From IMG/VR virus record IMGVR_UViG_3300046167_000733, positions 43,777 through 107,776 of that record: a stretch of 64,000 nucleotides of DNA. One strand, written 5' to 3'. Of the stretch, positions 12,089-55,471 are shown in pieces. A model generated the notes under the pieces. The model saw nothing but the letters and a program-made list of their open reading frames with translations, was not told the origin of the DNA and ran no database searches. The DNA is from a virus. Position 1 is the first letter of the stretch, and each line of letters begins with the position of its first letter. The translations under genes were made by a program, and so were the position numbers.

Positions 12089-14498
12089 AATAATCAATAG
12101 TTTAAATACTGAACTAAAAAGAAAGTCTGATAAACTTGCTCAAAGAACTTTGATGCCTAAAGTTAAAAAGATTAAAAATCTTGATGGCGCAATTAGATAT
12201 GCGTCAGGATTAGATGAGATTCAAGTTAATACTAATTTCAATGTTCCTACTTTTGGTGGTGCAAACAGATTAATAGGAACTCAACTTGATAGATTAAATA
12301 TTCAAACACAATCTATAATAGGAAATAACACAGACGGAGAAGTTTTTGGTGGATTTGCTAAGTCAATTGGTAATACAGGTGGTGAAGTAGGTCTTGTTAA
12401 GTTTGTGAGTACTGCAGGGTTAGATAATGTTGTTACTCCAAACTTTAAAGTATATGCTTCTGGCGCACCACAAGCAATTAGTATAGCAAGTAAAGACATA
12501 GAGAAAAAGATAAATGCTCAAAAAGTAGAAATAAATACTTTTCTTGATAGTCTACCTCAAGTGCTTGGAAGACCTTCAGGTGGTTTCCTTGGTTCCATTC
12601 TCAAAGTTGCAGGTATAGCAGGAGGTTTAAATGGTTTGTTACAACAGATATCTCCTCTTGCAAATATATCAAATCAATTAAATAATATCAAAGACCAAGT
12701 TTTAGACCAAACAGGAATAAGCGGTTTTCTTGACCAAGTTAATGGTCTGGCAGATAATGTAACAAACTATGTTAATACTTCTCTAGATGCAGTTTCAACT
12801 TCTCTTGGAGAAGCAATCGGTAATCCTTTATCAGAATTAGATAATGCTTTAAGTATTAATATTGGAGAAGAAACTTTTAGCACTAACCTTGGTGGATTCG
12901 CGAACGATTTATTAGAAAGTGTTACTGGAGACCTTCGTTCTCGTACAAACAATTTTATTTCAGGAGCAATACCTGATGTTGAAATAGGAGGATTAGTTAG
13001 TGGTATTGTAAGTGATGATATTACGGAAAGAGTATCTTCCATTGGTAGGATAACTCAATATGACAATGTAGTAAGAGAAAACCTTACTTTATTTGAACCT
13101 TGGAGTGCTGTTGAAAATGCTTCATCTCCAAGGGATGCAATTTTTCAGATAGAAACGAACGGTAAGAAGAACGGAGCAAGTGCGGCAAATATTTCTTATG
13201 TGCAAGGTTTATATGCATCAATAATATCAAAGACCGAAAATAACACTTTCAACGCAGGACTATCTTCTGTTATTGCTATAGGTTCAAGTCCTTTACTTTC
13301 TGTCAATCCATTACCCCTTTCAAAGAAGTTTACATATGTTTCGTCCATAGAAGAACTTGAACTAGAGATATCAAGTAGACTTGTAGTAAGTGCCGCAAGA
13401 GATGTAAGTAGTGTTGTTATTCATGCAACCGAAACATTCACAAATAAGAATATAGGTGCAGAAGAAATAGATGCAATACAGAAAAAACTAGGTGAAGATG
13501 AAGTAGGTTATCACTATGTGATTAGAAGAGACGGCAGACTTCAACGCGGAAGACCTGTTGAGAAAGAAGGAAGTCATTGTCCCACAGGCAACTATGATAA
13601 AACTTCTATAGGTATTGTAATGGTAGGGGGTATTAATCGTGCCTCTACAGAACAGTCCTTTGAAACCTCTAGTGCTTCATTTACACGCGCACAATATAAC
13701 ACATTAGAACAATTCCTTCAAGTGTTTTATAATAACTTTTCTGGTGGAGAAGTATTTGGTCATAGTGATATTGAAACAGATGAACTAGACCCTTACTTTG
13801 ATGTGAGTGAATATATACTATCGTTATTTGGTAAAATAAATTCTTCATCATTAGGTGTTCCTGAAATTGAAGGTGATTTTGAACCTACTGCTCCTGAAGG
13901 TATAACTGAAGAAACAGGAACAAATGCTCCAACAACTCGTGTTCAAGTTACTCCCGAAGAATTAAATGTTGCTCCAGACGAAGTTCCAAAGGATGTTGAA
14001 GTTGTGGTTGATAATGAATCTACGTTTAAAGTTATATATGAACCACAAAAGAAAAACTTCAATTTACCTGTTGACCCTGATGCTTTATTAGATGATATAC
14101 CAGAAAAGTTACAGAAACTTGCGAATTATATGAAAAGAGATATAAGAGTTACAAGTGGATATCGTGACGAAGAACATAATAGAAGGGCAGGTGGCGCAAA
14201 GTTCTCTCCACATTTATCACGAAAGGCAGTAGATATAAGTAGAAGTGATAGGGCACCAACAGTAGGAGGATGGAGATACACATCGTCCTTGATGAGTGAT
14301 GCCCAAGTTGCTGATTTAGTGCAAAAAGCATCCGAGTTGGGATTTAAAGGTATTGGAATATATGATGGTTATTTGCATCTTGATACTAGGTCAGGAAAAA
14401 AATGTTGGGCAACATCCAAAATATTGAGAGTTTCTTCTATTCCAAGATTTGCACAGATAGCAACAGTTCTAAGAAATAATGATTGGGATAATGTATGA
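12081..14498 (+). CDS. virion-associated peptidoglycan hydrolase: amidase_2 (T7 lysozyme-like) plus peptidase M15
   Basis: Amidase motifs VVIHAT, GYHYVIRRDG, SIGIVMVGG, GHSD..DP. M15 motifs TSGYR..HNRRAGGAKFSPH..KAVDI and GIGIY..YLHLDTR. Confidence 0.85.
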   Translation: MSKIINSLNTELKRKSDKLAQRTLMPKVKKIKNLDGAIRYASGLDEIQVNTNFNVPTFGGANRLIGTQLDRLNIQTQSIIGNNTDGEVFGGFAKSIGNTGGEVGLVKFVSTAGLDNVVTPNFKVYASGAPQAISIASKDIEKKINAQKVEINTFLDSLPQVLGRPSGGFLGSILKVAGIAGGLNGLLQQISPLANISNQLNNIKDQVLDQTGISGFLDQVNGLADNVTNYVNTSLDAVSTSLGEAIGNPLSELDNALSINIGEETFSTNLGGFANDLLESVTGDLRSRTNNFISGAIPDVEIGGLVSGIVSDDITERVSSIGRITQYDNVVRENLTLFEPWSAVENASSPRDAIFQIETNGKKNGASAANISYVQGLYASIISKTENNTFNAGLSSVIAIGSSPLLSVNPLPLSKKFTYVSSIEELELEISSRLVVSAARDVSSVVIHATETFTNKNIGAEEIDAIQKKLGEDEVGYHYVIRRDGRLQRGRPVEKEGSHCPTGNYDKTSIGIVMVGGINRASTEQSFETSSASFTRAQYNTLEQFLQVFYNNFSGGEVFGHSDIETDELDPYFDVSEYILSLFGKINSSSLGVPEIEGDFEPTAPEGITEETGTNAPTTRVQVTPEELNVAPDEVPKDVEVVVDNESTFKVIYEPQKKNFNLPVDPDALLDDIPEKLQKLANYMKRDIRVTSGYRDEEHNRRAGGAKFSPHLSRKAVDISRSDRAPTVGGWRYTSSLMSDAQVADLVQKASELGFKGIGIYDGYLHLDTRSGKKCWATSKILRVSSIPRFAQIATVLRNNDWDNV

Positions 14499-16183
14499 CA
14501 ACTAAAAATGACAATTATAAAGCAAGAACAGAGAAAGAAGGTTTAGGTCTTGGTTCTGAACTATCTGTCGGTGTCCCTGATAATGGAATGCAGAATGCTT
14601 CGGGCGATTATCCTAAGAGAGAATATAATTTTGGTTCTTCGGTTAACAAAGCAACAGTTGGAACCAAGGTAAACAAACTCTATACAGGTGGTGGTGAGAT
14701 TGGTGTTCCATTGAACATACCAGAACAGATGCCTTCTCAGTATCCATTCAATCAAGTAGATGAAACTCCAAGTGGACATGTCATTGAGATGGACGATACT
14801 CCAGGAGGAGAAAGAGTTCTTATTAAACATCGTAAAGGTTCGGGCGTAGAGTTACGCGCAGACGGTACGGTTGTAATATCTGCATTGAATAATAAGGTTG
14901 AGGTGACAGGGGGAGACCAAACTGTTATTATTGAAGGTCATGGTAATCTTGTGTATAACGGAAACCTTAATCTCAAAGTAAGTGGTGACTATAATGTTGA
15001 GGTTGGCGGTAACTATAATGTAGATGTTGCAGGTTATTCTCAAAAGACAATCGGAAGTTTCTATTCCAAAGCGGTTATAGGAGATGTCGCGCAAAAATAT
15101 ATGGGAACTAAAACAGAAAAGATTCTAGGTAATAGTCTCACTCTTAGATTAGGTGACGATGACTATGTTGTTAAAGGAACAAGGAATGATGTTACTGATG
15201 GTAATCATGAAATTTCATCTGGTGAAAACTTACTCATTTCTGGAGAAAAAACTGCAGAGATGATAAGTAGAAAAACTTCTATTACAGGGTCAGATAGAAT
15301 AAATGTTCAAGGGTCAGAAGGTATAATTGGTGGTGCGTTCGTTAGGTTTACAGGACAAACTTACTCAGGTGCACTCAAGAAAAGAGTTTACGGTGGTGGA
15401 GATAATTATGTTACAGGAGGAACACCAAGTGTTGATTCAGATGGTAGTGGAAACATATCAATCTCTGGCATTGACAGTGGTTCTTCAGGTGTTTTATCTT
15501 CAAGTGATTCTGATGGTGCAGGTAATCTTGCAACAACATATTCTTCAGGAGATGACTTTGCTTCAAGTTCGGATTATGAAACTGCTATATTTCACGGAAG
15601 TCTTCACGGTGTTGCAAAGAAAGCACAAATGGCAGACAATGCAAATAAATCTATTATGGCAACAGTATCAATGAATGCGGTTTCTTTAAATCCATTATTT
15701 GCAATTGGTGGTTTGAAAGCATTACCAAAAAGTTCTTTATTATCCAACTTCAACTTAGAAGCAGAAGATGTTCTTCATACAACTGTTGAACCCGACAATA
15801 TTGCTAAAGTTGCACTAGGTAAAATACCTCAAAATAATGAAACAAGCGCACATCTAAAAATTCAACCCATACAAGCAGTAAGTATTGACCCTGATGACTA
15901 TGTACGAGACCTTAGTTATGGTAAAGAACATTACAATCAGACATTCTTAAAAACACCTAGAACTGCAGAAATAAGAAGTGCGTTCAGAAATAAAGAGACA
16001 AGAGAGGATGGTATTTTAGGTGCTACTCTTGTTGCGGAAGGACTGTTAAATCGGAACTATAATTCTAAGGTTCCAAGTGCGAAATTAAGTGGAAGGGTTG
16101 TTGGTAAAGAAGCAAGTTCAAAATATGGTTATACACCGATAGGTAATTCTATAGAGAATAGAGGAAAAAGGTTTAGAAAATGA
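14495..16183 (+). CDS. 5: gp5 C-terminal part (beta-helix needle)
   Basis: SQYPFNQVDETPSGHVIEMDDTPGGERVLIKH..G and repeats of V.GDYNVEVGGNYN. Confidence 0.85.
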   Translation: MTTKNDNYKARTEKEGLGLGSELSVGVPDNGMQNASGDYPKREYNFGSSVNKATVGTKVNKLYTGGGEIGVPLNIPEQMPSQYPFNQVDETPSGHVIEMDDTPGGERVLIKHRKGSGVELRADGTVVISALNNKVEVTGGDQTVIIEGHGNLVYNGNLNLKVSGDYNVEVGGNYNVDVAGYSQKTIGSFYSKAVIGDVAQKYMGTKTEKILGNSLTLRLGDDDYVVKGTRNDVTDGNHEISSGENLLISGEKTAEMISRKTSITGSDRINVQGSEGIIGGAFVRFTGQTYSGALKKRVYGGGDNYVTGGTPSVDSDGSGNISISGIDSGSSGVLSSSDSDGAGNLATTYSSGDDFASSSDYETAIFHGSLHGVAKKAQMADNANKSIMATVSMNAVSLNPLFAIGGLKALPKSSLLSNFNLEAEDVLHTTVEPDNIAKVALGKIPQNNETSAHLKIQPIQAVSIDPDDYVRDLSYGKEHYNQTFLKTPRTAEIRSAFRNKETREDGILGATLVAEGLLNRNYNSKVPSAKLSGRVVGKEASSKYGYTPIGNSIENRGKRFRK

Positions 16184-16782: not shown

Positions 16783-16796
16783 ACCAATTAAAAACA

Positions 16797-16804: not shown

Positions 16805-16809
16805 GAACT

Positions 16810-17259: not shown

Positions 17260-17260
17260 A

Positions 17261-19087
17261 ATGGCAACAACAATAAATTCAACAGACTTAGATTTTGATT
17301 CAATAAAAAATAATCTTAAGACTTCTCTTCAAAATTCTGGAGAGTTCAATGATTATAACTTTGAAGCATCGGGTCTGTCAAGTATATTAGATGTACTTGC
17401 ATACAACACACACTATAATGGTCTTATCGCAAACTTTGCATTAAACGAATCCTTCTTGAGTACTGCACAACTTAGAAGTTCTGTACTTTCTCTTGCAGAA
17501 GGTATCGGATATGTTCCGAGTTCAAGAACTTCACCTCAAGCACTCGTAAACCTATCATTAAATTTGAGTGGAGTATCAGGTAGACCTTCAACCATTCAAA
17601 TAAACGATGGGTTTAAATTTAATTCAAGTGTTGATGAGATAAACTATGTGTTTCAAACACGAGAAGATTTAACTGCAACTGATGATGGTAATGGAATATA
17701 TTCTTTCAAAGATGTATCAGGAAGTGCTGATATAAAAATACTTGAAGGTACACTAAGAACTAAAACTTTCCTTGCATTGAAATCATTAGACAATCCTATA
17801 TATGTCATACCCGATAAGAACCTAGACATATCAACTACTATAGTGAGGGTTTTTGAATCACCGTCCTCTTCTTCCTTTGTTACATATGGTAACTTACAGA
17901 ACGCAAGAACAATAAACGAAAACTCTACATTGTATATATTAAGAGAAGCACCAAATGGTTTTTATGAATTATCTTTTGGTAATGGTGTTACATTAGGTAA
18001 AGCACCTTCTGTTGGTAGTAAGATAGAAGTAGAATATCTTTCTAGTGCAGGAACACTTGCAAATACTGCAAAGATATTCTCACCACAAAACTCAATAACA
18101 ATAAACTCTGTGAACTATCCTGTAACGACATCTACTGTATCAAATGCTATTGGTGGTAATGCAAAAGAAACTATAGAGAGTATTCGTAAAAATGCCCCAT
18201 TCCAATATGCATCACAGAACAGAATGGTAACTGCAAGTGACTATGCTTCATTGATACTTAAGAACTATTCTACTTTCATAAGTGATATACAATCCTTTGG
18301 TGGAGAAGATGCTCTTGAACCAGAATATGGTACAGTATTTGTTTCAATACTTTTCAATGATGATGTTGATGCCGCAACGCAACAAAATATAAAAGACGAG
18401 ATACTACAATTATCAGACGAGTTGTCGGTAGCATCATTCAGTACTAAGTTTGAAGACCCTATCACAACATTCGTTGAAGCGCAAACATTCTTTCAATTCA
18501 ATGATAACCTTACTACACTCGCAAGAAACACAATACAGAATGATGTAAATAGTGTTATCACAACTTACTTTACAAACAACACAGGTAAGTTTAATCAGTC
18601 ATTCAGAAGGTCAAATTTATTATCATTAGTAGATGCTACAAGTTCTGCAGTATTATCTTCAAGACAAGATGTAAAATTACAAAGAAGGTTTACACCAACT
18701 TTGACTGCAGTACAAGACCATAAGTTAAGATATGCCGCACCCCTTGCAACACCCGATGATATTCACTACAGAGTTACAAGTGACCAATTTACTTTTGGTG
18801 GTAATGCATGTATATTGAGAAACAAATTAAACACAAACAAACTAGAAGTGTTTGATACGGCACAAAATGTTGTTGTAGTAGATAATGTTGGAGATTACTC
18901 TGGAGACACTATCAATATAATAGGTCTAAGAGTTGATGCAATATTAGGTGGAAATGGTTTCGTTAAATTAAGTGCAACTCCTGCAAACCAGAGTGCTATT
19001 GCTCCACTAAGACAAGATGTTATTAGACTTGACGGAGATAAGTCATTCACTTCAATCGTTGATGTAGCAGATGGGGTTATTAGTTAA
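17261..19087 (+). CDS. 6: baseplate wedge subunit gp6
   Basis: LDFDSIKNNLK, DYNFEASGLSSILDVLAYNTHY, NESFLSTAQLRSSV and QNRMVTASDY motifs. Confidence 0.95.
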   Translation: MATTINSTDLDFDSIKNNLKTSLQNSGEFNDYNFEASGLSSILDVLAYNTHYNGLIANFALNESFLSTAQLRSSVLSLAEGIGYVPSSRTSPQALVNLSLNLSGVSGRPSTIQINDGFKFNSSVDEINYVFQTREDLTATDDGNGIYSFKDVSGSADIKILEGTLRTKTFLALKSLDNPIYVIPDKNLDISTTIVRVFESPSSSSFVTYGNLQNARTINENSTLYILREAPNGFYELSFGNGVTLGKAPSVGSKIEVEYLSSAGTLANTAKIFSPQNSITINSVNYPVTTSTVSNAIGGNAKETIESIRKNAPFQYASQNRMVTASDYASLILKNYSTFISDIQSFGGEDALEPEYGTVFVSILFNDDVDAATQQNIKDEILQLSDELSVASFSTKFEDPITTFVEAQTFFQFNDNLTTLARNTIQNDVNSVITTYFTNNTGKFNQSFRRSNLLSLVDATSSAVLSSRQDVKLQRRFTPTLTAVQDHKLRYAAPLATPDDIHYRVTSDQFTFGGNACILRNKLNTNKLEVFDTAQNVVVVDNVGDYSGDTINIIGLRVDAILGGNGFVKLSATPANQSAIAPLRQDVIRLDGDKSFTSIVDVADGVIS

Positions 19088-20067
19088 TGCCTCACAATAA
19101 CGATAATACTCTCAAGGATTTAAACCGACGTAACCTTGCGTTCGGTAAGTATTCTGTAAAGGAAATTCTTCCAGAATTTTTCCGTACAGAGTATCCTAAA
19201 CTAATTACATTACTTGATGAGTATTATCATTTTGAGAAGTCAGGTGATTCTCCTTCTAAACTTGTCGATGAACTCTTTCTCAGTAGAGATATAACACAGA
19301 ATGACCTTGACTTACTTACCTTTATTGAAGATGAGTTATTGTTAGGTCAGTCTTTCTTTGAGGGTTTCCAAGATAAACGCGCGGCATCAAAATACTCTAA
19401 TGTATTGTTTAGGTCAAAAGGCACAAAGTATTCTATACAACAATTCTTCAGAACATTCTTTGGTATAGACCCCGATATTGTATATACAAAGACTCAAGTA
19501 TTCAATGTAGGTGATGATATTGGTGCTGAGAGTCAGAAGTTTATTACTGACAACAAGTTGTATCAGAAACACGCAATACTTATCAGGTCAGAACTTGAGC
19601 AGAATACATGGAAAGATGCTTACAAACTCTTTGTTCACCCTGCAGGAACATTCTTAGGTTCAGAGATACAAATAGTCAGTAGTGTTGTTGATACAGTTAT
19701 TGCTCCAAATGTTATTATCCAAGAACCCGCACCAATCGCGGTATCAAGTGTTGCTAATCTATCACCACTCGCGTTTATTGACCACACATCACTTGTAAAT
19801 GATTTCAATACTGACTCTTCAGGAATACTCAGTAGGATAAGACCAGAACTTGCTAATCCAAGTGAGTTCTCAACGTTCACATTACAAGAGATAAATAATC
19901 AGTATGGAAGTTTGCGTGAAGCACAGATTGCATCATCACCAACCTTTGATGATTCAGACCAAGACTTCTCAAACAACTTCTCATTCGAAACACTAGACCA
20001 AGGAAGACATGTATTTTATAGTTCAGACTCTGACCAATATTTATTAAATCTTGGACATCTCGGTTAA
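19087..20067 (+). CDS. short gp7-like baseplate wedge protein
   Basis: LPEFFRTEYPKLITLLDEYY, FRSKGTKYSIQQFFR and KLFVHPAG motifs; follows gp6. Confidence 0.75.
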   Translation: MPHNNDNTLKDLNRRNLAFGKYSVKEILPEFFRTEYPKLITLLDEYYHFEKSGDSPSKLVDELFLSRDITQNDLDLLTFIEDELLLGQSFFEGFQDKRAASKYSNVLFRSKGTKYSIQQFFRTFFGIDPDIVYTKTQVFNVGDDIGAESQKFITDNKLYQKHAILIRSELEQNTWKDAYKLFVHPAGTFLGSEIQIVSSVVDTVIAPNVIIQEPAPIAVSSVANLSPLAFIDHTSLVNDFNTDSSGILSRIRPELANPSEFSTFTLQEINNQYGSLREAQIASSPTFDDSDQDFSNNFSFETLDQGRHVFYSSDSDQYLLNLGHLG

Positions 20068-20106: not shown

Positions 20107-21132
20107 ATGGCAAAACAAACATTAAATAAGGGAAGTTCTGCGAACGACGGTACAGGTGATACACTTCGTGCAGGTGCGCAAAAGATTAATGAGAACTTCA
20201 CTGAACTCTATGGTATATTAGGAGGTAACTCTCTTAACTCAGGTATCTCTTTTGATGCAACCACAAAGGGTCTCATCTTTGAAGGTTCTTCTGCCGATGA
20301 CCACGAGACATTTCTTGTTCCTACAAACGCAACTGCAGATAGAACGATTACTCTTCCAAACCTTACAGGAACAGTATCTCTTATTACGGCAACAGAAACA
20401 CTCACAAACAAAACACTTACGACTCCTACATTAACTAATCCTATATTAAGTCCTACTGCAACTACTGCGGGTAAGATAGAATTCTTAGAAGGTACAAACA
20501 ACGGAACAAACAAGGCAACTCTGATTGGACCTGCTTCAACTGCAGACGTAACCATAACCCTACCCGCGACAACAGATACATTAGTTGCTAGGACAACAAC
20601 AGATACACTTACTAATAAGACACTTACGACCCCTGTGTTAACAGCACCCAAAGTTACAACAAGTATAAATGACGCGAATAATAATGAAATAATAGAGACC
20701 CCTGCAACAGGAAGTGCAGTAAATCATTTCAAACTTACAAATGCCGCAACAGGTAATAATGTTACATTAGAAGCAACAGGTTCAGATACTAATGTTGGAC
20801 TCAATGTTACGAGTAAGGGAACAGGACTTGTTACAGTAACAACAGGTGTTGCGTTTTCAGAAATAGTACAAACTGCAAATGGTGCGGTATCTCTTGTTAA
20901 GACCGTAACAGTATTCAATAAAGGTTCTGCTCTTGCCGCAACACTTGCAAACGGAACAGTTGTAGGACAACTAAAAATACTTACAAACAAAGGTGCAGGG
21001 GCGGCAACAACAACTCCTGCAAACTTTGGGGCGGGAACAACAATCGCAATAGCACAACACAAGACCGCAACATTATTGTGGGACGGAACTAACTGGCAAA
21101 TACAATCAACTTATGGTGGAACGGTAGCATAA
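20107..21132 (+). CDS. baseplate/fibre connector with gp9/gp10-type N-terminus
   Basis: MAKQTLNKGSSANDGTGDTLRAGAQKINENFTELY; TLTNKTLT repeats. Confidence 0.75.
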   Translation: MAKQTLNKGSSANDGTGDTLRAGAQKINENFTELYGILGGNSLNSGISFDATTKGLIFEGSSADDHETFLVPTNATADRTITLPNLTGTVSLITATETLTNKTLTTPTLTNPILSPTATTAGKIEFLEGTNNGTNKATLIGPASTADVTITLPATTDTLVARTTTDTLTNKTLTTPVLTAPKVTTSINDANNNEIIETPATGSAVNHFKLTNAATGNNVTLEATGSDTNVGLNVTSKGTGLVTVTTGVAFSEIVQTANGAVSLVKTVTVFNKGSALAATLANGTVVGQLKILTNKGAGAATTTPANFGAGTTIAIAQHKTATLLWDGTNWQIQSTYGGTVA

Positions 21133-27688: not shown

Positions 27689-27897
27689 TGAAACCCAATC
27701 TGATAATGGTAGAAAATGGTGTAGGACTTGCTCGTGATGTGAGAACAGGTGGGATTATAAACATAAATAAAGAAGAGATACGAACTGCTCGCGAGAGAAA
27801 GAAACGAAGAAAACAAAAGGAAAACGAGTTCGAACAACTCAAGACAGATGTCTCTGAGATGAAACAACTCTTAAACACTATAATAGAGAAACTATAA
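27688..27897 (+). CDS. small conserved structural-module protein
   Basis: LARDVRTGGIIN followed by a coiled coil; typical ORF after VrlC-like genes. Confidence 0.75.
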   Translation: MKPNLIMVENGVGLARDVRTGGIININKEEIRTARERKKRRKQKENEFEQLKTDVSEMKQLLNTIIEKL

Positions 27898-31013: not shown

Positions 31014-31442
31014 ATGATGCAACGAACTTGGTTAGATAATGCCTTTTGGGAAACCCCCAAGAAACTCGTTCTAAATTGTATTAGCGAACATACCGACGAA
31101 GAAGGTAGGATTATTCGCAAGACAATGAAACTCAAAGAGAAACATCCCCAGTTCAAAGAGTGTATAGACTTCCTTGGAGAAGATGTTATTGAGGCATCCA
31201 CCGAGGAACGTAGGAAAAGAAAACTTCTTGAAAGAGAAATAGAACTCGAAAAAGAAAATGAACTTGGTAAGGCAAAGAAACTAGAAGTACTCTTCAAGTA
31301 TAAACTAGAGACTTTCGAAATCCCCGAAATAAAATCCGCAACAAATCGTAAACTCAAATCAAAACTTCGTAGGTCAAAGTCTATACCCGAAGTCAATCTC
31401 TATGCTATGATGATACTCCAAGAAAGTCTGAAAGATGAATAA
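31014..31442 (+). CDS. hypothetical protein (basic, helical; possibly a fibre-assembly factor)
   Basis: RBS GGAG; ends with LFKYKLETFEIPEIK...KSKLRRSKS; overlaps the glycosyltransferase start. Confidence 0.7.
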   Translation: MMQRTWLDNAFWETPKKLVLNCISEHTDEEGRIIRKTMKLKEKHPQFKECIDFLGEDVIEASTEERRKRKLLEREIELEKENELGKAKKLEVLFKYKLETFEIPEIKSATNRKLKSKLRRSKSIPEVNLYAMMILQESLKDE

Positions 31443-33049: not shown

Positions 33050-33418
33050 ATGGCACTAGTATCACACGAAGATATTGTAATAAACCAAGGCACAGATGTC
33101 GCGATAGAAATCCATCTCGTTCACGATAGTGGTAGTGTTTATAACTTAACAAACAGAACAGTTACCTCAAAAATGAAGAGAAGATATGCTGACTCAGCAG
33201 GAGACCCTGCTACAGTATCTTTCAACTCAGTTATTGCGACACCTCCAACAGATGGTATCGTAACACTATCCCTAACTAACGCAGTCACAGATGCCCTTGA
33301 AACAAGAGGTCGTTATGTGTATGATGTAGAACTTTCTTATCAGGATAGTGATAGTAATACAATCATAGAAAGAATTCTCCAAGGAGAAGTAGAAGTTTCA
33401 CCCTCAGTAACGAGATAG
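33050..33418 (+). CDS. fibre-attachment protein (BppU N-terminal-like)
   Basis: DIVINQGTD, GIVTLSLT...T.AL..GRYVYDVEL and RILQGEVEVSPSVT motifs. Confidence 0.75.
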   Translation: MALVSHEDIVINQGTDVAIEIHLVHDSGSVYNLTNRTVTSKMKRRYADSAGDPATVSFNSVIATPPTDGIVTLSLTNAVTDALETRGRYVYDVELSYQDSDSNTIIERILQGEVEVSPSVTR

Positions 33419-48032: not shown

Positions 48033-49802
48033 ATGGCACTTTTTACACCCTCTGCTTCCCCTGCTGTAACAGTTAAAGAAATTGACCTAACGGGAACCGT
48101 CCCTAATGTTCAAACTTCAACTGGTGCAATAGTCGGGAATTTCGGATGGGGTCCAGTTGGCGAAGCAAAATTAGTCTCAGATGAGACAGGTCTTGTTACT
48201 GCATTCTCTGCACCCACAGACGATAACTCGGTAGATTTTCATTCTGCCGCATATTTCTTACGTTATTCCAACTCTTTGTTTGTTGTTCGTGAACAAGATA
48301 CAGATGCAAGGAATGCCGTAGCAAACCACAGTACATTAGGTACTCTCACAACTCAAGCACTAAACACTCTAGACGCATTTGAAAATGCAACGATTGATTC
48401 ATCGGATGGTGTTTTCCTTGCGAAATATCCAGGCGTATTAGGAAACTCATTAAAAGTTTCTATGATTGGTACTCACTCAGACAGTAGTACAAAAGCATTT
48501 GATGCATGGACATATAAGTCAAACTTTGACGCAAAACCTGCAACTTCATCTTTCGTATCTGCATTAGGCGGTAAGAATGACGAAGTACATATTGCGGTCA
48601 TCGACGAAGATGGTCTTATTTCAGGAACTGCTAACACAGTACTTGAAACATTCCCATTTGTATCAGTTGCAAAGAACGCAAAGAACTCAGAAGGTTCATC
48701 AATATACTTTAAAGATGTATTGAAGAATCAGTCTCAGTGGGTCTATGCAGGTGTTGGACATAGAATCGGTAGTGCATCTGTTGATTCATCAGACTTCATC
48801 GGTGCTCAATGGGGCAATAATGCCACAACAGGCGCAGAAGACTTTGCCGCATCATTCCCTGCAGAACTTGCACAATCTGATTGGTCACTTAAAGGTGGTG
48901 TTACATCTGCTTCATTAGGAACAGACGATATTCTTCGAGGATACGACAAGTTCGAAGACGCAGACAACATTGAAGTAGACTTCTTGATTGCTCCACAATC
49001 AGTATCAACATCAGATGCAACAACAGTTGTGAATGACCTTATCGCTTCTGCAGAAGCACGTAAAGATTGTGTTGCAGTAGCATCACCTTCACGTACTGCA
49101 GTTGTAACAACAGGTACAAATGCCGCAGTTCTCACATGTAACAACACATACACCAAGTCAACTTACTTCGTACAAGATAATAACTTCTTGAAAGTATATG
49201 ACAAGTATAACGATAAGTACATCAAGATACCTGCCGCTTCATCAACCGCAGGACTTATGGCGGCAACAGACTTAGTTGCGGCACGTTGGTTCTCACCTGC
49301 AGGTTCAAGACGTGGTAGATATCTCGGAATAACAGATATCGTTCTTTCTCCTACAAAGGCAGAGAGAGATGCGTTATACAAAGTAGGTATCAACCCAATA
49401 GCAAATATTCCTGCAGAAGGAGTTATGTTGTTTGGTGATAAAACAAATGCTTCAAGACCAACAGCATTCGATAGAATAAATGTTCGTAGGTTGTTTTTGG
49501 GTATAGAACGCGCAATAGGTGCGGCAGGAAGAAACTTAATGTTTGAATTCAATGACGAGTTTACTCGTGCAGAGTTCGTGAACATTGTAGAACCATTCCT
49601 ACGCGAGATTAAAGGTCGTCGTGGACTTACAGACTTTAAAGTCATATGCGATGCATCTAACAATCCTCCTAGTGTCGTTGAAGCAAACAAATTTGTTGCA
49701 AACATCTTCATCAAACCATCACACTCAATCAACTATGTAACACTTAACTTTGTTGCTGTTAGAACAGGTGTCGAGTTTGAAGAAGTCGTTGGTACGGTTT
49801 AA
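48033..49802 (+). CDS. 18: tail sheath protein gp18
   Basis: SPAVTVKEIDLT, WFSPAG..RG, FGDKT, FDRINVRRLF and FEFNDEFTR motifs. Confidence 0.97.
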   Translation: MALFTPSASPAVTVKEIDLTGTVPNVQTSTGAIVGNFGWGPVGEAKLVSDETGLVTAFSAPTDDNSVDFHSAAYFLRYSNSLFVVREQDTDARNAVANHSTLGTLTTQALNTLDAFENATIDSSDGVFLAKYPGVLGNSLKVSMIGTHSDSSTKAFDAWTYKSNFDAKPATSSFVSALGGKNDEVHIAVIDEDGLISGTANTVLETFPFVSVAKNAKNSEGSSIYFKDVLKNQSQWVYAGVGHRIGSASVDSSDFIGAQWGNNATTGAEDFAASFPAELAQSDWSLKGGVTSASLGTDDILRGYDKFEDADNIEVDFLIAPQSVSTSDATTVVNDLIASAEARKDCVAVASPSRTAVVTTGTNAAVLTCNNTYTKSTYFVQDNNFLKVYDKYNDKYIKIPAASSTAGLMAATDLVAARWFSPAGSRRGRYLGITDIVLSPTKAERDALYKVGINPIANIPAEGVMLFGDKTNASRPTAFDRINVRRLFLGIERAIGAAGRNLMFEFNDEFTRAEFVNIVEPFLREIKGRRGLTDFKVICDASNNPPSVVEANKFVANIFIKPSHSINYVTLNFVAVRTGVEFEEVVGTV

Positions 49803-49815: not shown

Positions 49816-50343
49816 ATGGCAATATTAGGCGTAGATGACTTTAAGTCCAAACTCAGAGGCGGGGGCGCACGTCCCAATCTCTTCAAAGCAACTGTTAACT
49901 TTCCTGCATATGCAGGTGGTGATGTAGAACTCACTTCCTTCTTATGTAAGTCTGCTCAACTCCCTGCTTCAACAATAGCGGCACTTGCTGTTCCATTTCG
50001 TGGTAGAACACTACAGATGGCAGGAGACAGGACATTCGAACCTTGGTCACCAACTATCATTAACGATACAGATTTCTCAATCCGTAACGCAATGGAAAGA
50101 TGGATGAACGGTATGAATGGACACTCTGCTAACACAGGTATCACAAACCCTGTTGATTATCAAGCAGACCTTATCGTTGAACAGTTAGATAAAGACGGTT
50201 CTACTTTGAAGACATACAACTTCAGAGGTTGTTTCCCAACAAGTGTATCAGCAATCGACCTTTCGTATGAAACGAATGACGCGATTGAAGAGTTTACTGT
50301 TGAATTCCAAATCCAGTATTGGGAATCAGGAACAACTTCTTAA
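49816..50343 (+). CDS. 19: tail tube protein gp19
   Basis: GGGARPNLF, PFRGR...AGDRTFEPW and IEEFTVEFQ motifs. Confidence 0.97.
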   Translation: MAILGVDDFKSKLRGGGARPNLFKATVNFPAYAGGDVELTSFLCKSAQLPASTIAALAVPFRGRTLQMAGDRTFEPWSPTIINDTDFSIRNAMERWMNGMNGHSANTGITNPVDYQADLIVEQLDKDGSTLKTYNFRGCFPTSVSAIDLSYETNDAIEEFTVEFQIQYWESGTTS

Positions 50344-50379
50344 TTAGTTATAGTTAATCTGATTATAAGTATATGAATA

Positions 50380-50402
50380 GGGACGGGGTTATTCCCCGTC
50401 TC
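50380..50402 (+). terminator. GC-rich hairpin after gp19 (terminator or processing stem)
   Basis: GACGGGG-TTATT-CCCCGTC with only a weak U tail. Confidence 0.5.
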
Positions 50403-50437
50403 TTATACCGAAGGGAACTTAGAAATAGGAAAATATA

Positions 50438-51958
50438 ATGGCAGACGACAATAGTATTTTAAGACTATTTGGATTTGAACTCAAAAGAGCAAAATCAAAT
50501 CTAGAAAATGACAAAGATAAGAAATTAGAAAAACTGCGTTCTGTAGTTGCACCTGTCGATGATGATGGTGCAGGTTACATAACCGCGTCTGGTTCACATT
50601 ACGGTCAATACATTGACATGGATGGTGGACAGGCAAAAGACAATCATCAGTTAGTGATGAAGTATAGGGGTGTAGCAACTCACCCAGAAGTAGATGCCGC
50701 GATAGAAGATATCGTGAACGAATCAATAGTAGGTAGTGAACTTGAGTCACCTGTATCACTAAACCTAGACAAAATAAAAGCACCCGATAAAATCAAGCAC
50801 GACATGCAGGAAGAGTTCACAAAGATATGTTCTATGTTAAAGTTCAATGATTTGGGACACGACATATTCCGTTCATTCTATGTAGATGGTCGAGCATATT
50901 TTCATTTAATCGCAGACGAAAAGAATTTAAAGTTAGGTATCCAAGAGATACGTCCTGTTGACTCATCAAAGATAAGAAAAGTAAAAGAAGTATCATATAA
51001 AAAAGATGTTGCTACAAATGCAAAAATCATTGATAAAGTAAATGAGTTTTATATATTCCAAGAACGTTCAGGTGGTACTCAGGGTGTAAGACTTTCGCCC
51101 GACTCAGTATCCTATGTGACATCAGGGTTACTTGACCCAAGTAAGAAACAGGTTGTGTCTTATTTACATAAAGCATTAAAACCGATTAACCAGTTAAGAA
51201 TGATGGAAGACAGTCTGGTTATTTATCGTCTCGCGCGTGCACCCGAAAGACGTATATTCTATATTGACGTGGGTAACATGCCACGTAATAAATCAGAAGC
51301 ATATATGAAAGACATAATGTCTCGTTATAGAAACAAGTTAGTCTATGATGCAAACACAGGTAATCTCAAAGATGACCGTAAGCATATGTCTATGCTAGAA
51401 GACTTCTGGTTACCAAGACGAGAAGGTGGTAGAGGTACAGAGATTACTACACTTCCAGGTGGAGAGAACCTCGGACAGATTGATGACATCGTATACTTCC
51501 AGAAGAGAATGTATAGGTCATTAAATGTTCCGTTAAGTAGACTAGAACAAGAGAGTCAGTTCTCCCTTGGTAGGTCTACAGAGATTAATCGTGATGAAGT
51601 CAAGTTCCAAAAGTTCATTGACAGATTGCGCAAAAGATTTTCAATGTTGTTCACAGGTATATTGAAGAAGCAACTTCTTCTTAAAAACCTTATAACAGAA
51701 CAAGATTGGGAAAGTTGGAAGAACGATATTCAAGTTGACTTCCAAAGAGATAACCATTTCACAGAACTAAAGAATGCAGAAGTATTACAAAACCGTATAA
51801 ATGTTCTTGACCAAGTGTCACAATATGTAGGTGAATACTTCTCTCGTGAATGGGTTATGAAGAATGTCATGATGATGAGTGATGACGATATTAACGAAAT
51901 GAAAGACCAAGTTGAAGGCGAAAACTCCGTCGAAGATTCAGAAGAAGATGAGGAATAA
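50438..51958 (+). CDS. 20: portal protein gp20
   Basis: SYLHKALKPINQLRMMEDSLVIYRLARAPERRIFYIDVGN and EDFWLPRREGGRGTEITTLPGG motifs. Confidence 0.98.
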   Translation: MADDNSILRLFGFELKRAKSNLENDKDKKLEKLRSVVAPVDDDGAGYITASGSHYGQYIDMDGGQAKDNHQLVMKYRGVATHPEVDAAIEDIVNESIVGSELESPVSLNLDKIKAPDKIKHDMQEEFTKICSMLKFNDLGHDIFRSFYVDGRAYFHLIADEKNLKLGIQEIRPVDSSKIRKVKEVSYKKDVATNAKIIDKVNEFYIFQERSGGTQGVRLSPDSVSYVTSGLLDPSKKQVVSYLHKALKPINQLRMMEDSLVIYRLARAPERRIFYIDVGNMPRNKSEAYMKDIMSRYRNKLVYDANTGNLKDDRKHMSMLEDFWLPRREGGRGTEITTLPGGENLGQIDDIVYFQKRMYRSLNVPLSRLEQESQFSLGRSTEINRDEVKFQKFIDRLRKRFSMLFTGILKKQLLLKNLITEQDWESWKNDIQVDFQRDNHFTELKNAEVLQNRINVLDQVSQYVGEYFSREWVMKNVMMMSDDDINEMKDQVEGENSVEDSEEDEE

Positions 51959-51962
51959 AAAA

Positions 51963-52175
51963 ATGAGTAATGAAGCATTAGCACAACTAATAGACCATAT
52001 AGGTGATGGTGAACTAAATAAGGCACAAGATATGTTTAGTTCTATATTACAGGACAAACAATCAAGTGCATTAGAGTCACAGAGAGTATCTGTTGCAGGA
52101 CAAATCTTTAATGGAGATGTTCCAGATGCCGATATGGAGATATCTGACGAAGAAATAGTCGCAGAAATAGAATAA
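51963..52175 (+). CDS. 67: prohead core protein (gp67-like)
   Basis: Small acidic ORF directly after the portal gene; synteny. Confidence 0.6.
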   Translation: MSNEALAQLIDHIGDGELNKAQDMFSSILQDKQSSALESQRVSVAGQIFNGDVPDADMEISDEEIVAEIE

Positions 52176-52203
52176 AATAGTTAATTTTATAAAAATAAAT
52201 TTG

Positions 52204-52211
52204 TATAAATA
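52204..52211 (+). promoter_or_regulatory. late promoter TATAAATA
   Basis: Exact consensus just before the ATG at 52217. Confidence 0.7.
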
Positions 52212-52216
52212 GAAGT

Positions 52217-52429
52217 ATGAAAACTTATAAAAACCTCATAACAGAACTTGCGGGTCGTAAACCAGAAGGAAAGGTTGTCTTCAAAAAGACAATCAATAAA
52301 ATCCCTGTACTTGTGACTCAAGGAAAAGATGGTTTTGTTGCGTATGTTGATGGTGACCACTTAGACCACTACGACAACTTAAATAACGCAAAGAAGGCAA
52401 TCGACAAAGTTATAAAGGAATTGACCTAA
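52217..52429 (+). CDS. small prohead-region protein (gp68 position)
   Basis: MKTYKNLITE N-terminus typical of T4-like capsid-targeted proteins; synteny. Confidence 0.55.
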   Translation: MKTYKNLITELAGRKPEGKVVFKKTINKIPVLVTQGKDGFVAYVDGDHLDHYDNLNNAKKAIDKVIKELT

Positions 52430-53091
52430 TGAAGTTAATTACAGAATTTACAGAGAACGAAACACTAAAGTGTCTCGTAGAGAAAAAAGAAGATGGCGAA
52501 AAGAAATACGTTATAGAAGGCGTTTTCGCACAAGCAGATAAAAAGAATAGAAACGGACGAGTTTATCCTAAACCGATTATGGAAAAGGCAGTAAACAAGT
52601 ACGTGGAAACCCAAGTTAGTAAGAAACGTGCGGTAGGGGAACTTAATCACCCCGAAGGACCAACTGTTAACTTGGATAAAGTTTCTCACCTAATCACCGA
52701 CCTCAAATTAGAGGGAGTTGATGTGGTAGGAAAGGCACAAATATTGGATACTCCAATGGGTAAGATTGTTAAAGGTCTGCTCGATGGTGGTGTACAACTA
52801 GGTGTGTCAACTCGTGGTATGGGTAGTCTTGAGAAAAAGGGTGACGCAATGGTCGTGAAAGACGACTTTATTCTTAGTACGGTTGACATCGTACAAGACC
52901 CATCAGCACCAGATGCTTTTGTTAATGGTATAATGGAAGGTGTTGATTGGATTTGGGATAACGGTGTCCTTAAACCTCAAGTAATTGAACAAATGGAGAT
53001 TGAAATTAAGAATGCTCCGAAGACTGTCTTATATGAGACAAGTGTTCGAGAGTTTAAGAATTTCCTCTCGTTACTAAAATCTAATATGTAA
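52429..53091 (+). CDS. 21: prohead protease gp21
   Basis: NRNGRVYP, GELNHP, GVSTRGMGS and DIVQDPSAPDAFV motifs. Confidence 0.97.
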   Translation: MKLITEFTENETLKCLVEKKEDGEKKYVIEGVFAQADKKNRNGRVYPKPIMEKAVNKYVETQVSKKRAVGELNHPEGPTVNLDKVSHLITDLKLEGVDVVGKAQILDTPMGKIVKGLLDGGVQLGVSTRGMGSLEKKGDAMVVKDDFILSTVDIVQDPSAPDAFVNGIMEGVDWIWDNGVLKPQVIEQMEIEIKNAPKTVLYETSVREFKNFLSLLKSNM

Positions 53092-53101
53092 AGGAGTCAT
53101 T

Positions 53102-54148
53102 ATGACTGAAAAACATGAAGACCTCGACGATGTAGTAACAGACGAAATCGTTGAACAAACTCTCGAAGAGATGGACGGTAAAGCACCTGCTCCTAAAGAA
53201 GACCCCGACGCAACTTCTCCCGAAGATGCCGTTGCTTCTGTGGATAAAGTAGAAAAAGATGCTCCTGCTCCTATCAAGAAAGTCCACCCGAAAACAAAAG
53301 CGGGTATGATTAGTGCAATGACTGACAAAATGCTTAAAATGACCAAAAAGGACATGGAAGAGATGTATGGCAGTTACAATACTGAATCAGTAGATATGGA
53401 AGATAGTGAAGTTGTTGTTGAAACAACTGTAGATACTTCTGCTGAGTTAGACGCACTAGTTGAGTCTGAAGCAACTCTTTCCGAAGAGTTTAAGCAAAAA
53501 ACCGCAATACTTTTTGAAAGTGCATTAAAATCTAAGTTGTCAGAAGAAGTTGACAGATTAGAAGCACAATACAAATCAGAGTTAGCAGAAGAAGTATCTT
53601 CAACTAAATCTGACCTTGTTGAAAAAGTGGACAACTACCTGAACTATGTAGTTGAAACTTGGATGGAAGACAACAAACTTGCAGTGCAGAATGGTCTGCG
53701 CACAGAGATTGCTGAAACTTTCATGGAGAAAATGAAAGACCTCTTCACAGAGTCTTACATTGATGTTCCAGAATCTAAAGTTGACCTAGTTGATGAACTT
53801 GCTGAGTCTGTAGATGAGTTGGAAACAAAACTCAATGAACAAACACAGAAAGTAATCGACACTACAGTAGAACTAGAAGGATACAAGAGAAACACGATTA
53901 TTCGTGAAGCATCTCGTGACCTTGCTGAAACTCAAGTTGAAAAACTTAAGTCACTCGTTGAAGACGTTGATTTTGGAAGTGAAGAAATCTTTGCTGAAAA
54001 AGTAAACACAATCAAAGAGTCATATTTCAGTAAAATAATCAAAGAAGAAGTAAGTCAAGACATTGCAGAAGACGCTGACCAAACGGTTGAAGTTTCTGAC
54101 ACGATGGGTTCTTACCTCTCCGCAATTCGTAAAACAGCATTAAAATAA
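53102..54148 (+). CDS. 22: prohead scaffold gp22
   Basis: LSEEFKQKTAILFESA and KVDNYLNYVVETWM.DN motifs; acidic coiled coil. Confidence 0.95.
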   Translation: MTEKHEDLDDVVTDEIVEQTLEEMDGKAPAPKEDPDATSPEDAVASVDKVEKDAPAPIKKVHPKTKAGMISAMTDKMLKMTKKDMEEMYGSYNTESVDMEDSEVVVETTVDTSAELDALVESEATLSEEFKQKTAILFESALKSKLSEEVDRLEAQYKSELAEEVSSTKSDLVEKVDNYLNYVVETWMEDNKLAVQNGLRTEIAETFMEKMKDLFTESYIDVPESKVDLVDELAESVDELETKLNEQTQKVIDTTVELEGYKRNTIIREASRDLAETQVEKLKSLVEDVDFGSEEIFAEKVNTIKESYFSKIIKEEVSQDIAEDADQTVEVSDTMGSYLSAIRKTALK

Positions 54149-54160
54149 GGAAGTATCACA

Positions 54161-55471
54161 ATGCAACAATCATACGACAGACTAATAGAAAAGTGGGCAC
54201 CAGTCCTAGACGAAGGCGTGGCAATCAAAGACCACCACAAACGTCAAGTTACTGCCGCTATTCTAGAAAACCAAGAGCGTGCTTTACAAGAAGAGCGTTC
54301 AGCACTTAGCGGATTCTTAACAGAGAATGCCGCCGCACCAGGAAACTCCACATCAGGCGTTTCAAACTTTGACCCAGTATTAATCTCATTAGTACGACGT
54401 TCAATGCCTAACCTAATCGCATACGACGTATGTGGTGTTCAACCAATGAACGGACCAACTGGTCTTATCTTTGCTATGAAAGCAAGATATGGTAAAGGCG
54501 CAACAGGTTCAAGAGAAGCACTATTCAACGAAGCAGAAACACGTTTCGGTGGTGATTCAGGTGGAACACATGACTCAGACAACGCATCTGGTTTCAATGG
54601 TATTGATTCAGAAGGCGCACGTCTAACTGCACTAGGTGCAGGTGGTATGCCAACTGCTGATGCTGAAGCATTAGGCGCAACAGGCGGTTCTGCTTTCAAC
54701 GAAATGGGTTTCACCATTGAGAAGCAAACTGTTACTGCTAAGTCCCGTGCATTAAAGGCAGAGTATTCATTAGAACTTGCTCAAGACCTTAAAGCAATCC
54801 ACGGTCTAGATGCTGAAACAGAGTTAGCAAACATATTGTCAACTGAAATCCTCGCTGAAATCAACCGCGAAGTTATCAGAACAATTAACTCACAAGCAAA
54901 AACTGGTGCACAACAGTCAAACGTAACTGCTAAAGGTATATTCAATATGTCTGCAGATACAGATGGACGTTGGAGTGCAGAGAAGTTCAAAGGTCTCGGA
55001 GTACACATCGACAGAGAAGCAAACGTTATTGCTAAAGAAACTCGTCGTGGTAAAGGTAACATCGTAATCTGTTCATCAGACGTTGCTACTGCTCTCGCCG
55101 CCGCAGGAACTCTTGACTATTCACCTGCTCTTGCATCAACCCTACAGGTAGATGACACAGGTAACACTTTTGCAGGTGTATTAAACGGACGTATCAAAGT
55201 ATACATAGACCCATATGCAAGCACAGACTACATCACTGTAGGTTATAAGGGTTCAAACCCATATGACTCAGGCGTATTCTATTGCCCATATGTACCGTTA
55301 CAAATGGTTAAAGCAGTGTCTGAAAATTCATTCGCTCCGAAAATCGGGTTCAAAACTCGTTACGGCATGGCGTCTAACCCATTCGTAGGTGCCGCACCTT
55401 CAGATGGTTTGGCAACAGTCAAAACTAACCAGTACTACAGAATCTCAAAAGTGACTAACATCCTTACATAG
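54161..55471 (+). CDS. 23: major capsid protein gp23
   Basis: LVRRSMPNLIAYDVCGVQPMNGPTGLIFAM, AKSRALKAEYSLELAQDLKAIHGLDAE and YCPYVPL motifs. Confidence 0.98.
   Translation: MQQSYDRLIEKWAPVLDEGVAIKDHHKRQVTAAILENQERALQEERSALSGFLTENAAAPGNSTSGVSNFDPVLISLVRRSMPNLIAYDVCGVQPMNGPTGLIFAMKARYGKGATGSREALFNEAETRFGGDSGGTHDSDNASGFNGIDSEGARLTALGAGGMPTADAEALGATGGSAFNEMGFTIEKQTVTAKSRALKAEYSLELAQDLKAIHGLDAETELANILSTEILAEINREVIRTINSQAKTGAQQSNVTAKGIFNMSADTDGRWSAEKFKGLGVHIDREANVIAKETRRGKGNIVICSSDVATALAAAGTLDYSPALASTLQVDDTGNTFAGVLNGRIKVYIDPYASTDYITVGYKGSNPYDSGVFYCPYVPLQMVKAVSENSFAPKIGFKTRYGMASNPFVGAAPSDGLATVKTNQYYRISKVTNILT

Follow-up and report, generated by a model that had tools for sequence, protein, structure and literature searches.

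Does the residue that follows an Asp-Ser dipeptide carry information in the virion of a marine phage? The question is raised by a 64-kb stretch of viral DNA (the window), the final 64 kb of the 107,776-bp IMG/VR record IMGVR_UViG_3300046167_000733 (G000:C1:43777-107776, G000 being the record that contains the window). The record is about 65% complete and belongs to an uncultured marine T4-like myovirus whose nearest cultured phages, HTVC008M, Melnitz and Phage C48C1, are all distant. Gene assignments in the window were based on PHROG and Pfam matches, and 30 genes form its virion module. An initial annotation had noticed that Asp-Ser (DS) in these virion proteins is repeatedly followed by Ala, Asp, Ser or Gly, and had proposed this tripeptide, written here DS[ADSG], as a sequon for a phage-encoded modifier, possibly the gene pair at 31435-32828. 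The part of the proposal that stood is the tag: it behaves like a sequon for a trans-acting factor, being ordered, residue-specific and restricted to the outer virion and to the clade, at about 60 loop positions in a dozen folds. The phage does encode glycan enzymes, but the link to the gene pair did not stand.

Residue bias after Asp-Ser in the virion module

The motif was discovered in the VrlC-like baseplate/fibre protein (22505..27688, plus strand; 1727 amino acids [aa]; Pfam DUF4815, phrog_358), where all 11 DS are followed by A, D, S or G, exactly as initially reported. Across the virion module, DS occurs 78 times versus 77.9 predicted from composition. The initial annotation had cautioned that the residue after Ser (position +2), and not a modestly raised DS count, was the real signal, and this caution was well placed, as the count is not raised at all. 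The +2 residue is A, D, S or G in 46 of the 78 cases (59%), compared to a background of 32.5% (p = 1.4e-6), and of 118 common dipeptides in the module none restricts its next residue more strongly than DS. Three controls had been proposed along with the motif, namely shuffled composition, non-structural proteins and the reverse order (the latter given below), and the bias withstood each of them. Shuffling blocks of 8, 12 or 20 aa, which keeps the local composition, yielded 27±5 DS[ADSG] instead of 46, a value reached by at most 1 in 2000 shuffles (P ≤ 0.0005). The non-virion open reading frames (ORFs) have 1 of 18 DS followed by one of the four residues in the window and 8 of 60 over the whole record, against 46/78 in the virion module. 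Without the discovery protein, the module still gives 35/67, and positions −6 to −1 and +3 to +8 around DS are near background.

In this genome, the true excess lies in DSD (18 versus 5.8 expected) and DSA (13 versus 6.6), with DSS and DSG being about as frequent as expected, while DSL (1 versus 5.6), DST (3 versus 7.8), DSV (3 versus 5.7) and likewise DSK are depleted in the window. Repeat units common to the fibre genes contain 11 of the 14 DSE and all three ATDSN sites, and thus these sites are not independent. The alternative class DS[ADES] was ruled out, given that those 11 DSE come from one fibre repeat and Glu predominates at +2 in only 2 of the 74 conserved DS columns (see below). A DNA-level cause was also ruled out, since the Ser codons at the tag sites are mixed (AGT 19, TCA 13, TCT 11) and resemble overall usage.

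Conservation and direction of the motif among relatives

The ORFs of 160 related viral contigs were assigned to the protein families of the window. The VrlC-like protein has 120 homologues there (47-93% identity) with 1279 DS in total, and in 1108 of these the next residue is D (462), A (331), S (173) or G (142), with T (28), N (26) and E (14) being far less frequent. The alignment contains about 12 conserved columns in which D-S is invariant and the +2 residue alternates among A, G, D and S (e.g., A43 G42 D8 S6 in one column and S40 A32 D9 G5 in another); where DS is present in one to five sequences, any residue comes next. For a test over 20 virion families, the majority follower was scored at each of 74 conserved DS columns. 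At 60 of them it was D, A, S or G (D24 A20 S10 G6; p about 5e-18), N, E, T and V being avoided, and Asp is constant at all 74. In other words, some 60 columns from a dozen unrelated families keep both D and S and restrict +2 to D, A, S or G.

This bias is specific for both residues and for their order. At conserved columns, D-T-x is followed by one of the four residues in 15 of 43 cases, which equals background, no bias was found for E-S-x, N-S-x, S-D-x or x-D-S, and the dipeptides D-G and D-A showed none either. Read in reverse, x-S-D is preceded by A, S or G in 8 of 27 non-D conserved columns, which is no excess; its apparent enrichment arises because DSD is palindromic. Given that the bias is specific to the D-S-x order and that the codons are mixed, the tag is a directional, protein-level motif. 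Its consensus context at conserved columns is hydrophobic(−1)-D-S-[D/A/S/G]-[G/N](+3), and 75% of the motif columns are adjacent to an indel, compared to 51% of all columns. On account of this context and of the proximity to indels, the sites correspond to strand-to-turn loops. As a separate observation, the tripeptide with the second strongest bias at conserved columns was G-N-Y, Tyr following 20 of 55 conserved GN columns (p = 2e-13; loci L001-L080, 12 virion families), which may be a signature of fibre and baseplate repeats.

Could chance, a post hoc choice of letters or a Ser/Asp-rich local composition account for the pattern? The four letters were indeed chosen after looking, some of the sites lie in the low-complexity insert of the gp5-like protein and in fibre repeats, and [ADSG]-S-D is enriched at the window level as well. 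Nevertheless, the bias persists against block shuffles and outside the discovery protein, the reverse control is negative at conserved columns, and, with the residue class ADSG fixed in advance, replication was obtained in 200 related contigs, in the complete relative G001 and in the unrelated phage DSL-LC06 (both described below). We thus consider this explanation close to negligible.

Distribution between outer and internal virion proteins

The motif is carried by the families of the gp7-like, connector-like, gp8-like and VrlC-like proteins, of the ORFs at 27897, 29640 and 33050, of the fibres, of the gp14-like and gp15-like proteins, of the sheath and of the major capsid protein. It was not found in the gp6-like, gp25-like, ORF 16180, gp13-like, tube, portal, protease, scaffold and terminase families, nor in the cassette proteins described further below. 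This division roughly approximates the one between outward-facing and internal parts of the virion. The sites listed gene by gene in the initial annotation (gp5-like, gp7-like, gp8-like, ORF 33050, gp14/15-like, sheath and capsid) were confirmed; only a few DSP, DST, DSN and DSE had been omitted from it.

In the baseplate, the gp8-like wedge protein (21134..22492, plus strand; phrog_438) has three DSA, one DSD and one DST, and in its family 439 of 507 DS are followed by A, D, S or G, with seven of eight conserved DS columns being of the motif type. The gp7-like outer baseplate protein (19087..20067, plus strand; DSS, two DSD and DSP) belongs to a family with 197/261 and three conserved columns, all with D, A or S at +2. 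A fibre-like structural protein (27897..29633, plus strand) has a single DSD here, its family reaching 134/146 with seven conserved columns, and the 122-aa protein (33050..33418, plus strand; phrog_1084, L-shaped tail fibre assembly-like) has DSG, DSA, DSD and DSN, with 60/71 and four conserved columns in the family. Among the gp13/14/15-like genes (43590-46024), the two neck or tail-terminator proteins, gp14-like (44370-45242, plus strand; DSA and DSD; family 84/111) and gp15-like (45242-46024, plus strand; three DSD; family 150/166), have two and three conserved motif columns, respectively. The terminase, sheath, tube, portal, protease, scaffold and major capsid protein genes are found at 46882-55471. 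Of those, the tail sheath (48033..49802, plus strand; phrog_23; three DSS) has a family value of 282/326 with four conserved columns, and the major capsid protein (54161..55471, plus strand; phrog_138; DSG, DSD, DSE, DSG) one of 65/90, also with four.

The internal proteins served as negative controls. The tail tube, portal, prohead protease and scaffold genes (49816..54148, plus strand) are without the motif, and in their families DS[ADSG] accounts for 1/25 in the tube, 31/192 in the portal, where the conserved DS read DSV/DSI and DSL, and 1/55 in the scaffold. The same is observed for the inner baseplate/wedge protein gp6-like (17261..19087, plus strand; family 20/132), whose sole conserved DS column is followed by K, M or R, and for the gp25-like wedge family (gene at 16810). 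In the gp5-like hub (14495..16183, plus strand), DSD, DSG and DSD lie within a Ser/Gly-rich insert; the family value is 25/38, yet DS is not conserved at any column, and local low complexity is therefore a probable contributor there. The sheath tag sites align to about residues 112, 146 and 318 of T4 gp18, which would lie in the outer domains I/II of the T4 structure. Judging from this alignment, the proximity to indels and the split between outer and inner proteins, the tagged sites are likely exposed.

Two members of motif-rich families have no DS[ADSG] in this genome, the baseplate-fibre connector-like protein (20107..21132, plus strand; no DS at all; family 174/231, four conserved columns) and the Ser/Thr-rich fibre-like protein (29640..30980, plus strand; DSH and DSI; family 182/316, five conserved motif columns). 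Therefore, the tag load differs gene by gene among close relatives. In the four tail-fibre genes (33425-35767, 35875-37608, 37840-39507 and 39428-41785, all plus strand), DS[AD] sites are mixed with repeat-borne DSE and DSN, and the family of the first one has 105/145. The fibre genes at 33425, 35875 and 37840 share a unit of about 35 aa (…DVTDTANVT-x-AGALMDSE-[LV]-TDLAGVKGVTISTL), present in 11 copies, and a second repeat unit (…ATDSNVFTDADHSKLN…) is found in those at 33425, 35875 and 39428. Since the ORFs at 35875 and 37840 start with the second half of the repeat, that is, mid-repeat, modular shuffling of fibre segments is suggested.

Clade specificity of the tag and the structural alternative

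If the bias reflected a generic rule for turns, it should also hold in the virion proteins of other T4-like phages and in the non-virion proteins of the same phage. It does not: DS[ADSG] makes up 13 of 49 DS in T4 (background 28%), 22 of 61 in Syn9 (31%) and 25 of 76 in HTVC008M (33%), and since these homologues and the own non-virion proteins are at background, the tag is not a generic turn rule. At the VrlC motif columns, the loops of these three outgroups hold unrelated residues, such as AED, EAK, DDT, DAQ or TDD. In G001, a complete 149-kb member of the clade, the virion proteins have 76/102 against a background of 32% (p = 1e-18), its other ORFs 27/131, and here the total number of DS is raised as well (102 versus 76 expected). 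By these sequence comparisons, the tag is clade-specific and not a generic turn preference. In HTVC008M, the fibre-like proteins show D-S-F in 19 of 76 DS (L081, HTVC008M 30000-79999; genes at locus 7919-24906), a different lineage-specific tripeptide that is perhaps repeat-borne.

Within the clade, the rule holds at 38% to 79% VrlC identity, with few weak lineages. In the weakest one (L029-L034, record G002), six families have DGS, DAS, STD, EKD, KTG and others at the positions of the conserved DS columns. Proteins of G002 and G000 are 95-100% identical in the regions flanking the baseplate module but 37-70% identical inside it (G000:49053-74753, corresponding to window positions 5277-30980; loci L188, L189 and L031), and this difference points to an exchange of the module. 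The exchanged module is the one poor in Asp-Ser tags. Phage C48C1 shows a partial motif (34/78) derived mostly from one repeat protein, its VrlC homologue having 1/7 and its gp8-like protein 0/3.

The same bias was found in DSL-LC06, an unrelated freshwater phage of 29.8 kb whose tail is of the tape-measure type. Its virion proteins have 24/39 against a background of 31% (p = 9e-5), and its other proteins 2/8. For next-residue bias, DS ranks first of 165 dipeptides in DSL-LC06, compared to 144th of 260 in T4 and 48th of 246 in Syn9. DSL-LC06 is therefore an independent replicate of the bias.

These comparisons bear on the explanation that needs no modification at all, in which the clade would have a structural or physico-chemical preference for exposed hydrophobic-D-S-small-G/N beta-turns, be it for Asx/ST-turn capping, hydration or contacts with divalent cations from seawater. 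Several observations suit it: the sites follow a hydrophobic residue, often precede G or N and adjoin indels, the small +2 residues fit tight turns, the DS count of the window is not raised, and the outgroups retain D-x-x-G-type loops at several homologous positions. The initial annotation had itself named simple turn motifs among the outcomes that would speak against its proposal, and the sites are indeed strand-to-turn loops; it is the clade specificity that argues against a generic turn preference. In addition, Asn and Thr, both favourable in turns and common in these proteins, are avoided whereas Asp is tolerated, and D-T, N-S, D-G and D-A are without bias. A structural preference would also have to drive some 60 columns, spread over a dozen unrelated folds, towards a single ordered tripeptide, and to do so again in an unrelated phage with one small enzyme in common with the clade. 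Thus, we regard it as unlikely to be the whole explanation, albeit with considerable weight left.

A glycan operon upstream of the window and a candidate reader

A glycan operon lies 3.5-11.7 kb upstream of window base 1 (G000:C1:32088-40265; locus L085:8088-16268). It encodes a Sulfotransfer_2 protein, a Methyltransf_24 protein, a HAD hydrolase, an NTP_transferase, a 278-aa uncharacterised protein, two Glyco_transf_25 proteins (glycosyltransferase family 25, GT25), small ORFs and, at its end, a 209-aa protein with an N-terminal G-N-G loop, referred to here as the GNG protein (G000:39639-40265; 3.5-4.1 kb upstream of window base 1). The operon is common to G000 and G001 and absent from HTVC008M and C48C1, except for the GNG gene, which is kept in C48C1. 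The trio of HAD hydrolase, NTP_transferase and 278-aa protein was rejected as the determinant of the motif, because it is missing both in G002, where the motif is weak, and in G004, where it is strong.

None of the residues G9, N10 and G11 varies among 27 close and 40 distant homologues of the GNG protein, the loop reading GNGPS in the distant consensus and GNGDS in this clade. The clade loop, G-N-G-D-S-A-G, itself holds D-S-A. The protein also carries a G-x-D motif as in Maf and GT42 enzymes, and fusions to GT8 or GT4 domains occur among its longer relatives. In a PF01973 search of 17 records, a single sub-threshold match was obtained, in G007, and the matching ORF is the homologue of G000:39639-40265; the best E values were 9.8e-5 for one distant member of the family and 0.012 for a close one, all below the 34.6-bit cut-off. 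A profile of the family (202 representatives) run against the PDB sequences placed eight Campylobacter jejuni CstII/CstI chains on top, weakly (E = 0.02-0.14) and aligned across the GNGPS loop. A relationship of the GNG protein to GT42/Maf enzymes is thus plausible from profile similarity, below formal thresholds.

As for its distribution, the gene is present in 12 of the 12 clade records that cover the region, as well as in C48C1, and it was not found in the complete genomes of HTVC008M, T4 and Syn9. The only other match in 50,697 phage records is a gene of DSL-LC06 (tblastn E = 2e-4), annotated by the depositor as an alpha-2,3/8-sialyltransferase. Viral contigs were scanned twice with distant GNG homologues, without any locus being found.

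Starting from what is directly observed, that is, the motif, its specificity, its distribution and the co-occurrence of genes, we infer a modification of Ser, its enzyme and its chemistry in the following way. D-S-[D/A/S/G], with a hydrophobic residue before it and often G or N after it, would be a short linear tag in exposed strand-to-turn loops of outer virion proteins. A soluble, phage-encoded transferase would read this tag in the cytoplasm and, before assembly or in the course of it, modify the Ser, O-glycosylation being the most likely reaction; the particle would thus be released carrying a glycan coat. The best candidate for the reader is the GNG protein, distantly like GT42 sialyltransferases and Maf, and the sulfotransferase, the methyltransferase and the two GT25 enzymes of the operon could extend or decorate the sugar. 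That the tag is a Ser O-glycosylation tag read by the GNG protein is our preferred explanation, which we put forward as nearly an evenly balanced proposition. Somewhat more tentatively, we propose that the marine T4-like clade and at least one unrelated small phage might share a sequon-directed O-glycan coat, for which a GT42/Maf-like enzyme of about 200 aa would attach a CMP-activated (CMP, cytidine monophosphate) sugar of the 3-deoxy-D-manno-octulosonate (Kdo) or nonulosonate type, to be extended or decorated by GT25, methyltransferase and sulfotransferase.

Several points weigh against this proposal. C48C1 has the GNG gene with only a partial motif. The gene is also intact in the weak-motif lineages G002 and G007, for which a recent swap of the baseplate module could account. 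The similarity of the GNG protein to GT42/Maf stays below every curated threshold. Maf enzymes take both Ser and Thr, and here Thr is excluded. As the sites are classic strand-to-turn positions (hydrophobic-D-S-x-G/N), a structural contribution to them is likely. Total DS is raised in G001 but not in this genome (78 versus 78). Finally, the co-occurrence of the GNG gene and the motif is drawn from few independent lineages, and the clade is known from uncultured sequence alone, the modification being a prediction.

Some other factor might also read the tag. The two GT25 enzymes might initiate the glycan, or the change might not involve a glycan (phosphorylation, sulfation by the Sulfotransfer_2 protein or esterification, of Ser or of Asp), or the tag might be a docking site for assembly or decoration. 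GT25 includes protein (hydroxylysine) galactosyltransferases. The GT25 pair, the sulfotransferase and the methyltransferase are clade-specific and absent from C48C1 and HTVC008M, both of which are without the full motif, and with respect to C48C1 the GT25 pair fits better than the GNG gene. The pair is, however, present wherever the region is covered, including the weak-motif G002, which keeps both genes. Moreover, DSL-LC06 has the motif and a GNG-type gene; no evidence of GT25 or of a sulfotransferase was found there, its annotation listing other glycosyltransferases, and no kinase was seen among the ORFs scanned. Altogether, such a reader or such a non-glycan change seems rather improbable to us.

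Further upstream lie an ORF of 384 aa with P-loop and GNAT acetyltransferase-like parts and a 380-aa CTP_transf_3 cytidylyltransferase (E = 3e-34; G000:C1:9354-12285, locus L086:5354-8285). The latter gene (G000:11146-12285) is of the CMP-Kdo or CMP-nonulosonate synthetase type. It was rejected as a part of the system, being found only in G000 among 11 records searched and not in the complete G001.

The cassette at 31014-32828

The gene pair favoured by the initial annotation belongs to a cassette of three genes on the plus strand: a charged 142-aa protein without a Pfam or PHROG match (31014..31442), a protein predicted to have a GT-A fold and to be a GT8-like glycosyltransferase (31435..32178), and a protein predicted to be a double-stranded beta-helix (DSBH), protein-hydroxylase-like (32175..32828). 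The trio is syntenic, ahead of ORF 33050 and the fibres, in 21-22 relatives and in Phage C48C1, the DSBH protein always being paired with the GT-A enzyme ahead of fibre genes. Profile and sequence searches of the PDB sequences with the cassette proteins gave no match.

For the glycosyltransferase, the structural model (predicted local distance difference test, pLDDT, 78; predicted template modelling score, pTM, 0.81) has 161 PDB matches at E ≤ 1e-3, the best ones being LgtC, the UGGT catalytic domain, glycogenin and GlyE. Its DxD motif, D80-A81-D82, is invariant in 18 homologues; no Pfam or PHROG match was found at default thresholds, with sub-threshold GT2 Pfam matches in 9 of the 18 members. 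The model of the DSBH protein (pLDDT 93) best matches PHD2, NO66 and P4H of Pseudomonas putida with a probability of 0.97-1.0, although the template modelling (TM) score is only 0.30-0.38. Invariant in 18 homologues are H121-N122-N123 and H182, so that the metal motif reads H121-x-N123...H182, with Asn at the place of the carboxylate expected from H-x-D/E...H. Because this Asn replaces the iron-binding Asp/Glu, the activity is uncertain, and the protein may be an unusual or inactive oxygenase.

A glycosyltransferase of the GT8-like GT-A type next to a protein-hydroxylase-like protein, encoded on the late strand and syntenic between fibre genes in relatives, would be an attractive candidate for modifying DS[ADSG] throughout the virion. 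Its distribution, however, shows a double dissociation from the motif. No homologue of the cassette was found in G004 (121 kb; motif 9/11 and 15/18), G005, G006 (motif 17/19 and 41/51) and G007, and it is missing between its usual neighbours in L009 (motif 9/11 and 17/21). Conversely, it is present in C48C1 in spite of the values for VrlC and gp8-like given above, and the copy in weak-motif G002 is 85% identical to that of the window. Modification of the tags by this pair is thus very unlikely, and the cassette probably serves the adjacent fibre genes instead.

Comparison with known systems and implications

The closest parallel for the proposed enzyme is found in Maf proteins, which attach O-glycans to surface-exposed Ser/Thr of flagellin while it is still in the cytoplasm, prior to export (PMC11339370, PMC4065374). 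Their possible donors include CMP-Kdo and CMP-N-acetylneuraminate (CMP-Neu5Ac), CMP-Kdo being made by every Gram-negative host (PMC11339370, PMC4065374). As in Maf and GT42 (CstII/CstI), a soluble cytoplasmic enzyme would transfer a CMP-activated nonulosonate or Kdo to exposed Ser/Thr of a polymer that later becomes extracellular, and the GNG protein shares the N-terminal GNG(P/D)S loop and the G-x-D motif with them. It is, however, only a third to half their size, and unlike the Thr-accepting Maf enzymes it would act on a strict D-S-[DASG] across a dozen virion proteins. We know of no sequon for Maf enzymes.

Acceptors resembling the tag are known from two bacterial systems. SdgB O-GlcNAcylates (adds O-linked N-acetylglucosamine to) a minimal DSD peptide (PMC8561734). 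The Asp-flanked Ser acceptor of SdgB/SdgA, which act on staphylococcal Ser-Asp repeat adhesins, resembles DSD, the commonest form of the tag. SdgB is, however, a GT-B enzyme (GT4) for long tandem Ser-Asp repeats of secreted adhesins, as opposed to isolated tripeptides in folded loops, where DSA comes close to DSD in frequency. The ORFs scanned included no SdgB-like gene. In Bacteroidetes, a general O-glycosylation sequon was found by similar motif statistics; the initial annotation had cited it as D-(S/T)-x, correctly as regards the leading Asp and the O-glycosylation, but the actual sequon is the narrower D-(S/T)-(A/I/L/V/M/T) (PMC8550257). The likeness lies in a three-residue sequon led by Asp, with the next residue as acceptor, in many unrelated proteins. 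That system takes Thr and methyl-bearing +2 residues, whereas here Thr is excluded, L, I, V and T are depleted and Asp is the top +2 residue. Moreover, Bacteroidetes O-glycosylation acts on exported proteins, and the substrates here are cytoplasmic virion proteins.

Among phages, the mycobacteriophages Che8, Corndog and Myrna reportedly glycosylate their own capsid and tail proteins by phage-encoded glycosyltransferases (Freeman et al. 2023), as echoed in PMC11256854. The sites reportedly cluster in C-terminal extensions of capsid and tail-tube proteins. Phage-encoded glycosyltransferases are likewise present here, namely the two GT25, the GT-A enzyme and the GT42/Maf-like candidate. The differences are that those are actinobacteriophage siphoviruses with glycosylated virions, for which we know of no defined tripeptide sequon, whereas the phages described here are T4-like marine myoviruses known from genes alone, with a defined tag on many outer proteins and a candidate enzyme of another type. 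Experimental evidence of phage virion glycosylation comes from a few actinobacteriophages, and a recognition sequence for it is not known to have been described.

If true, the tag would be the first defined sequon for phage virion glycosylation, and the GNG protein the smallest known enzyme of its class; such a minimal pair of tag and enzyme could serve as a tool for protein glycoengineering. Were the tag unmodified, its coordinated appearance at about 60 loop positions across a dozen unrelated structural proteins would still call for an explanation. With a three-residue tag legible in the sequence itself, metagenomes could be used to predict which phages are glycan-coated, and the tag would bear on the ways in which abundant ocean phages protect or adjust their surfaces, with regard to adsorption, grazing, stickiness and stability.

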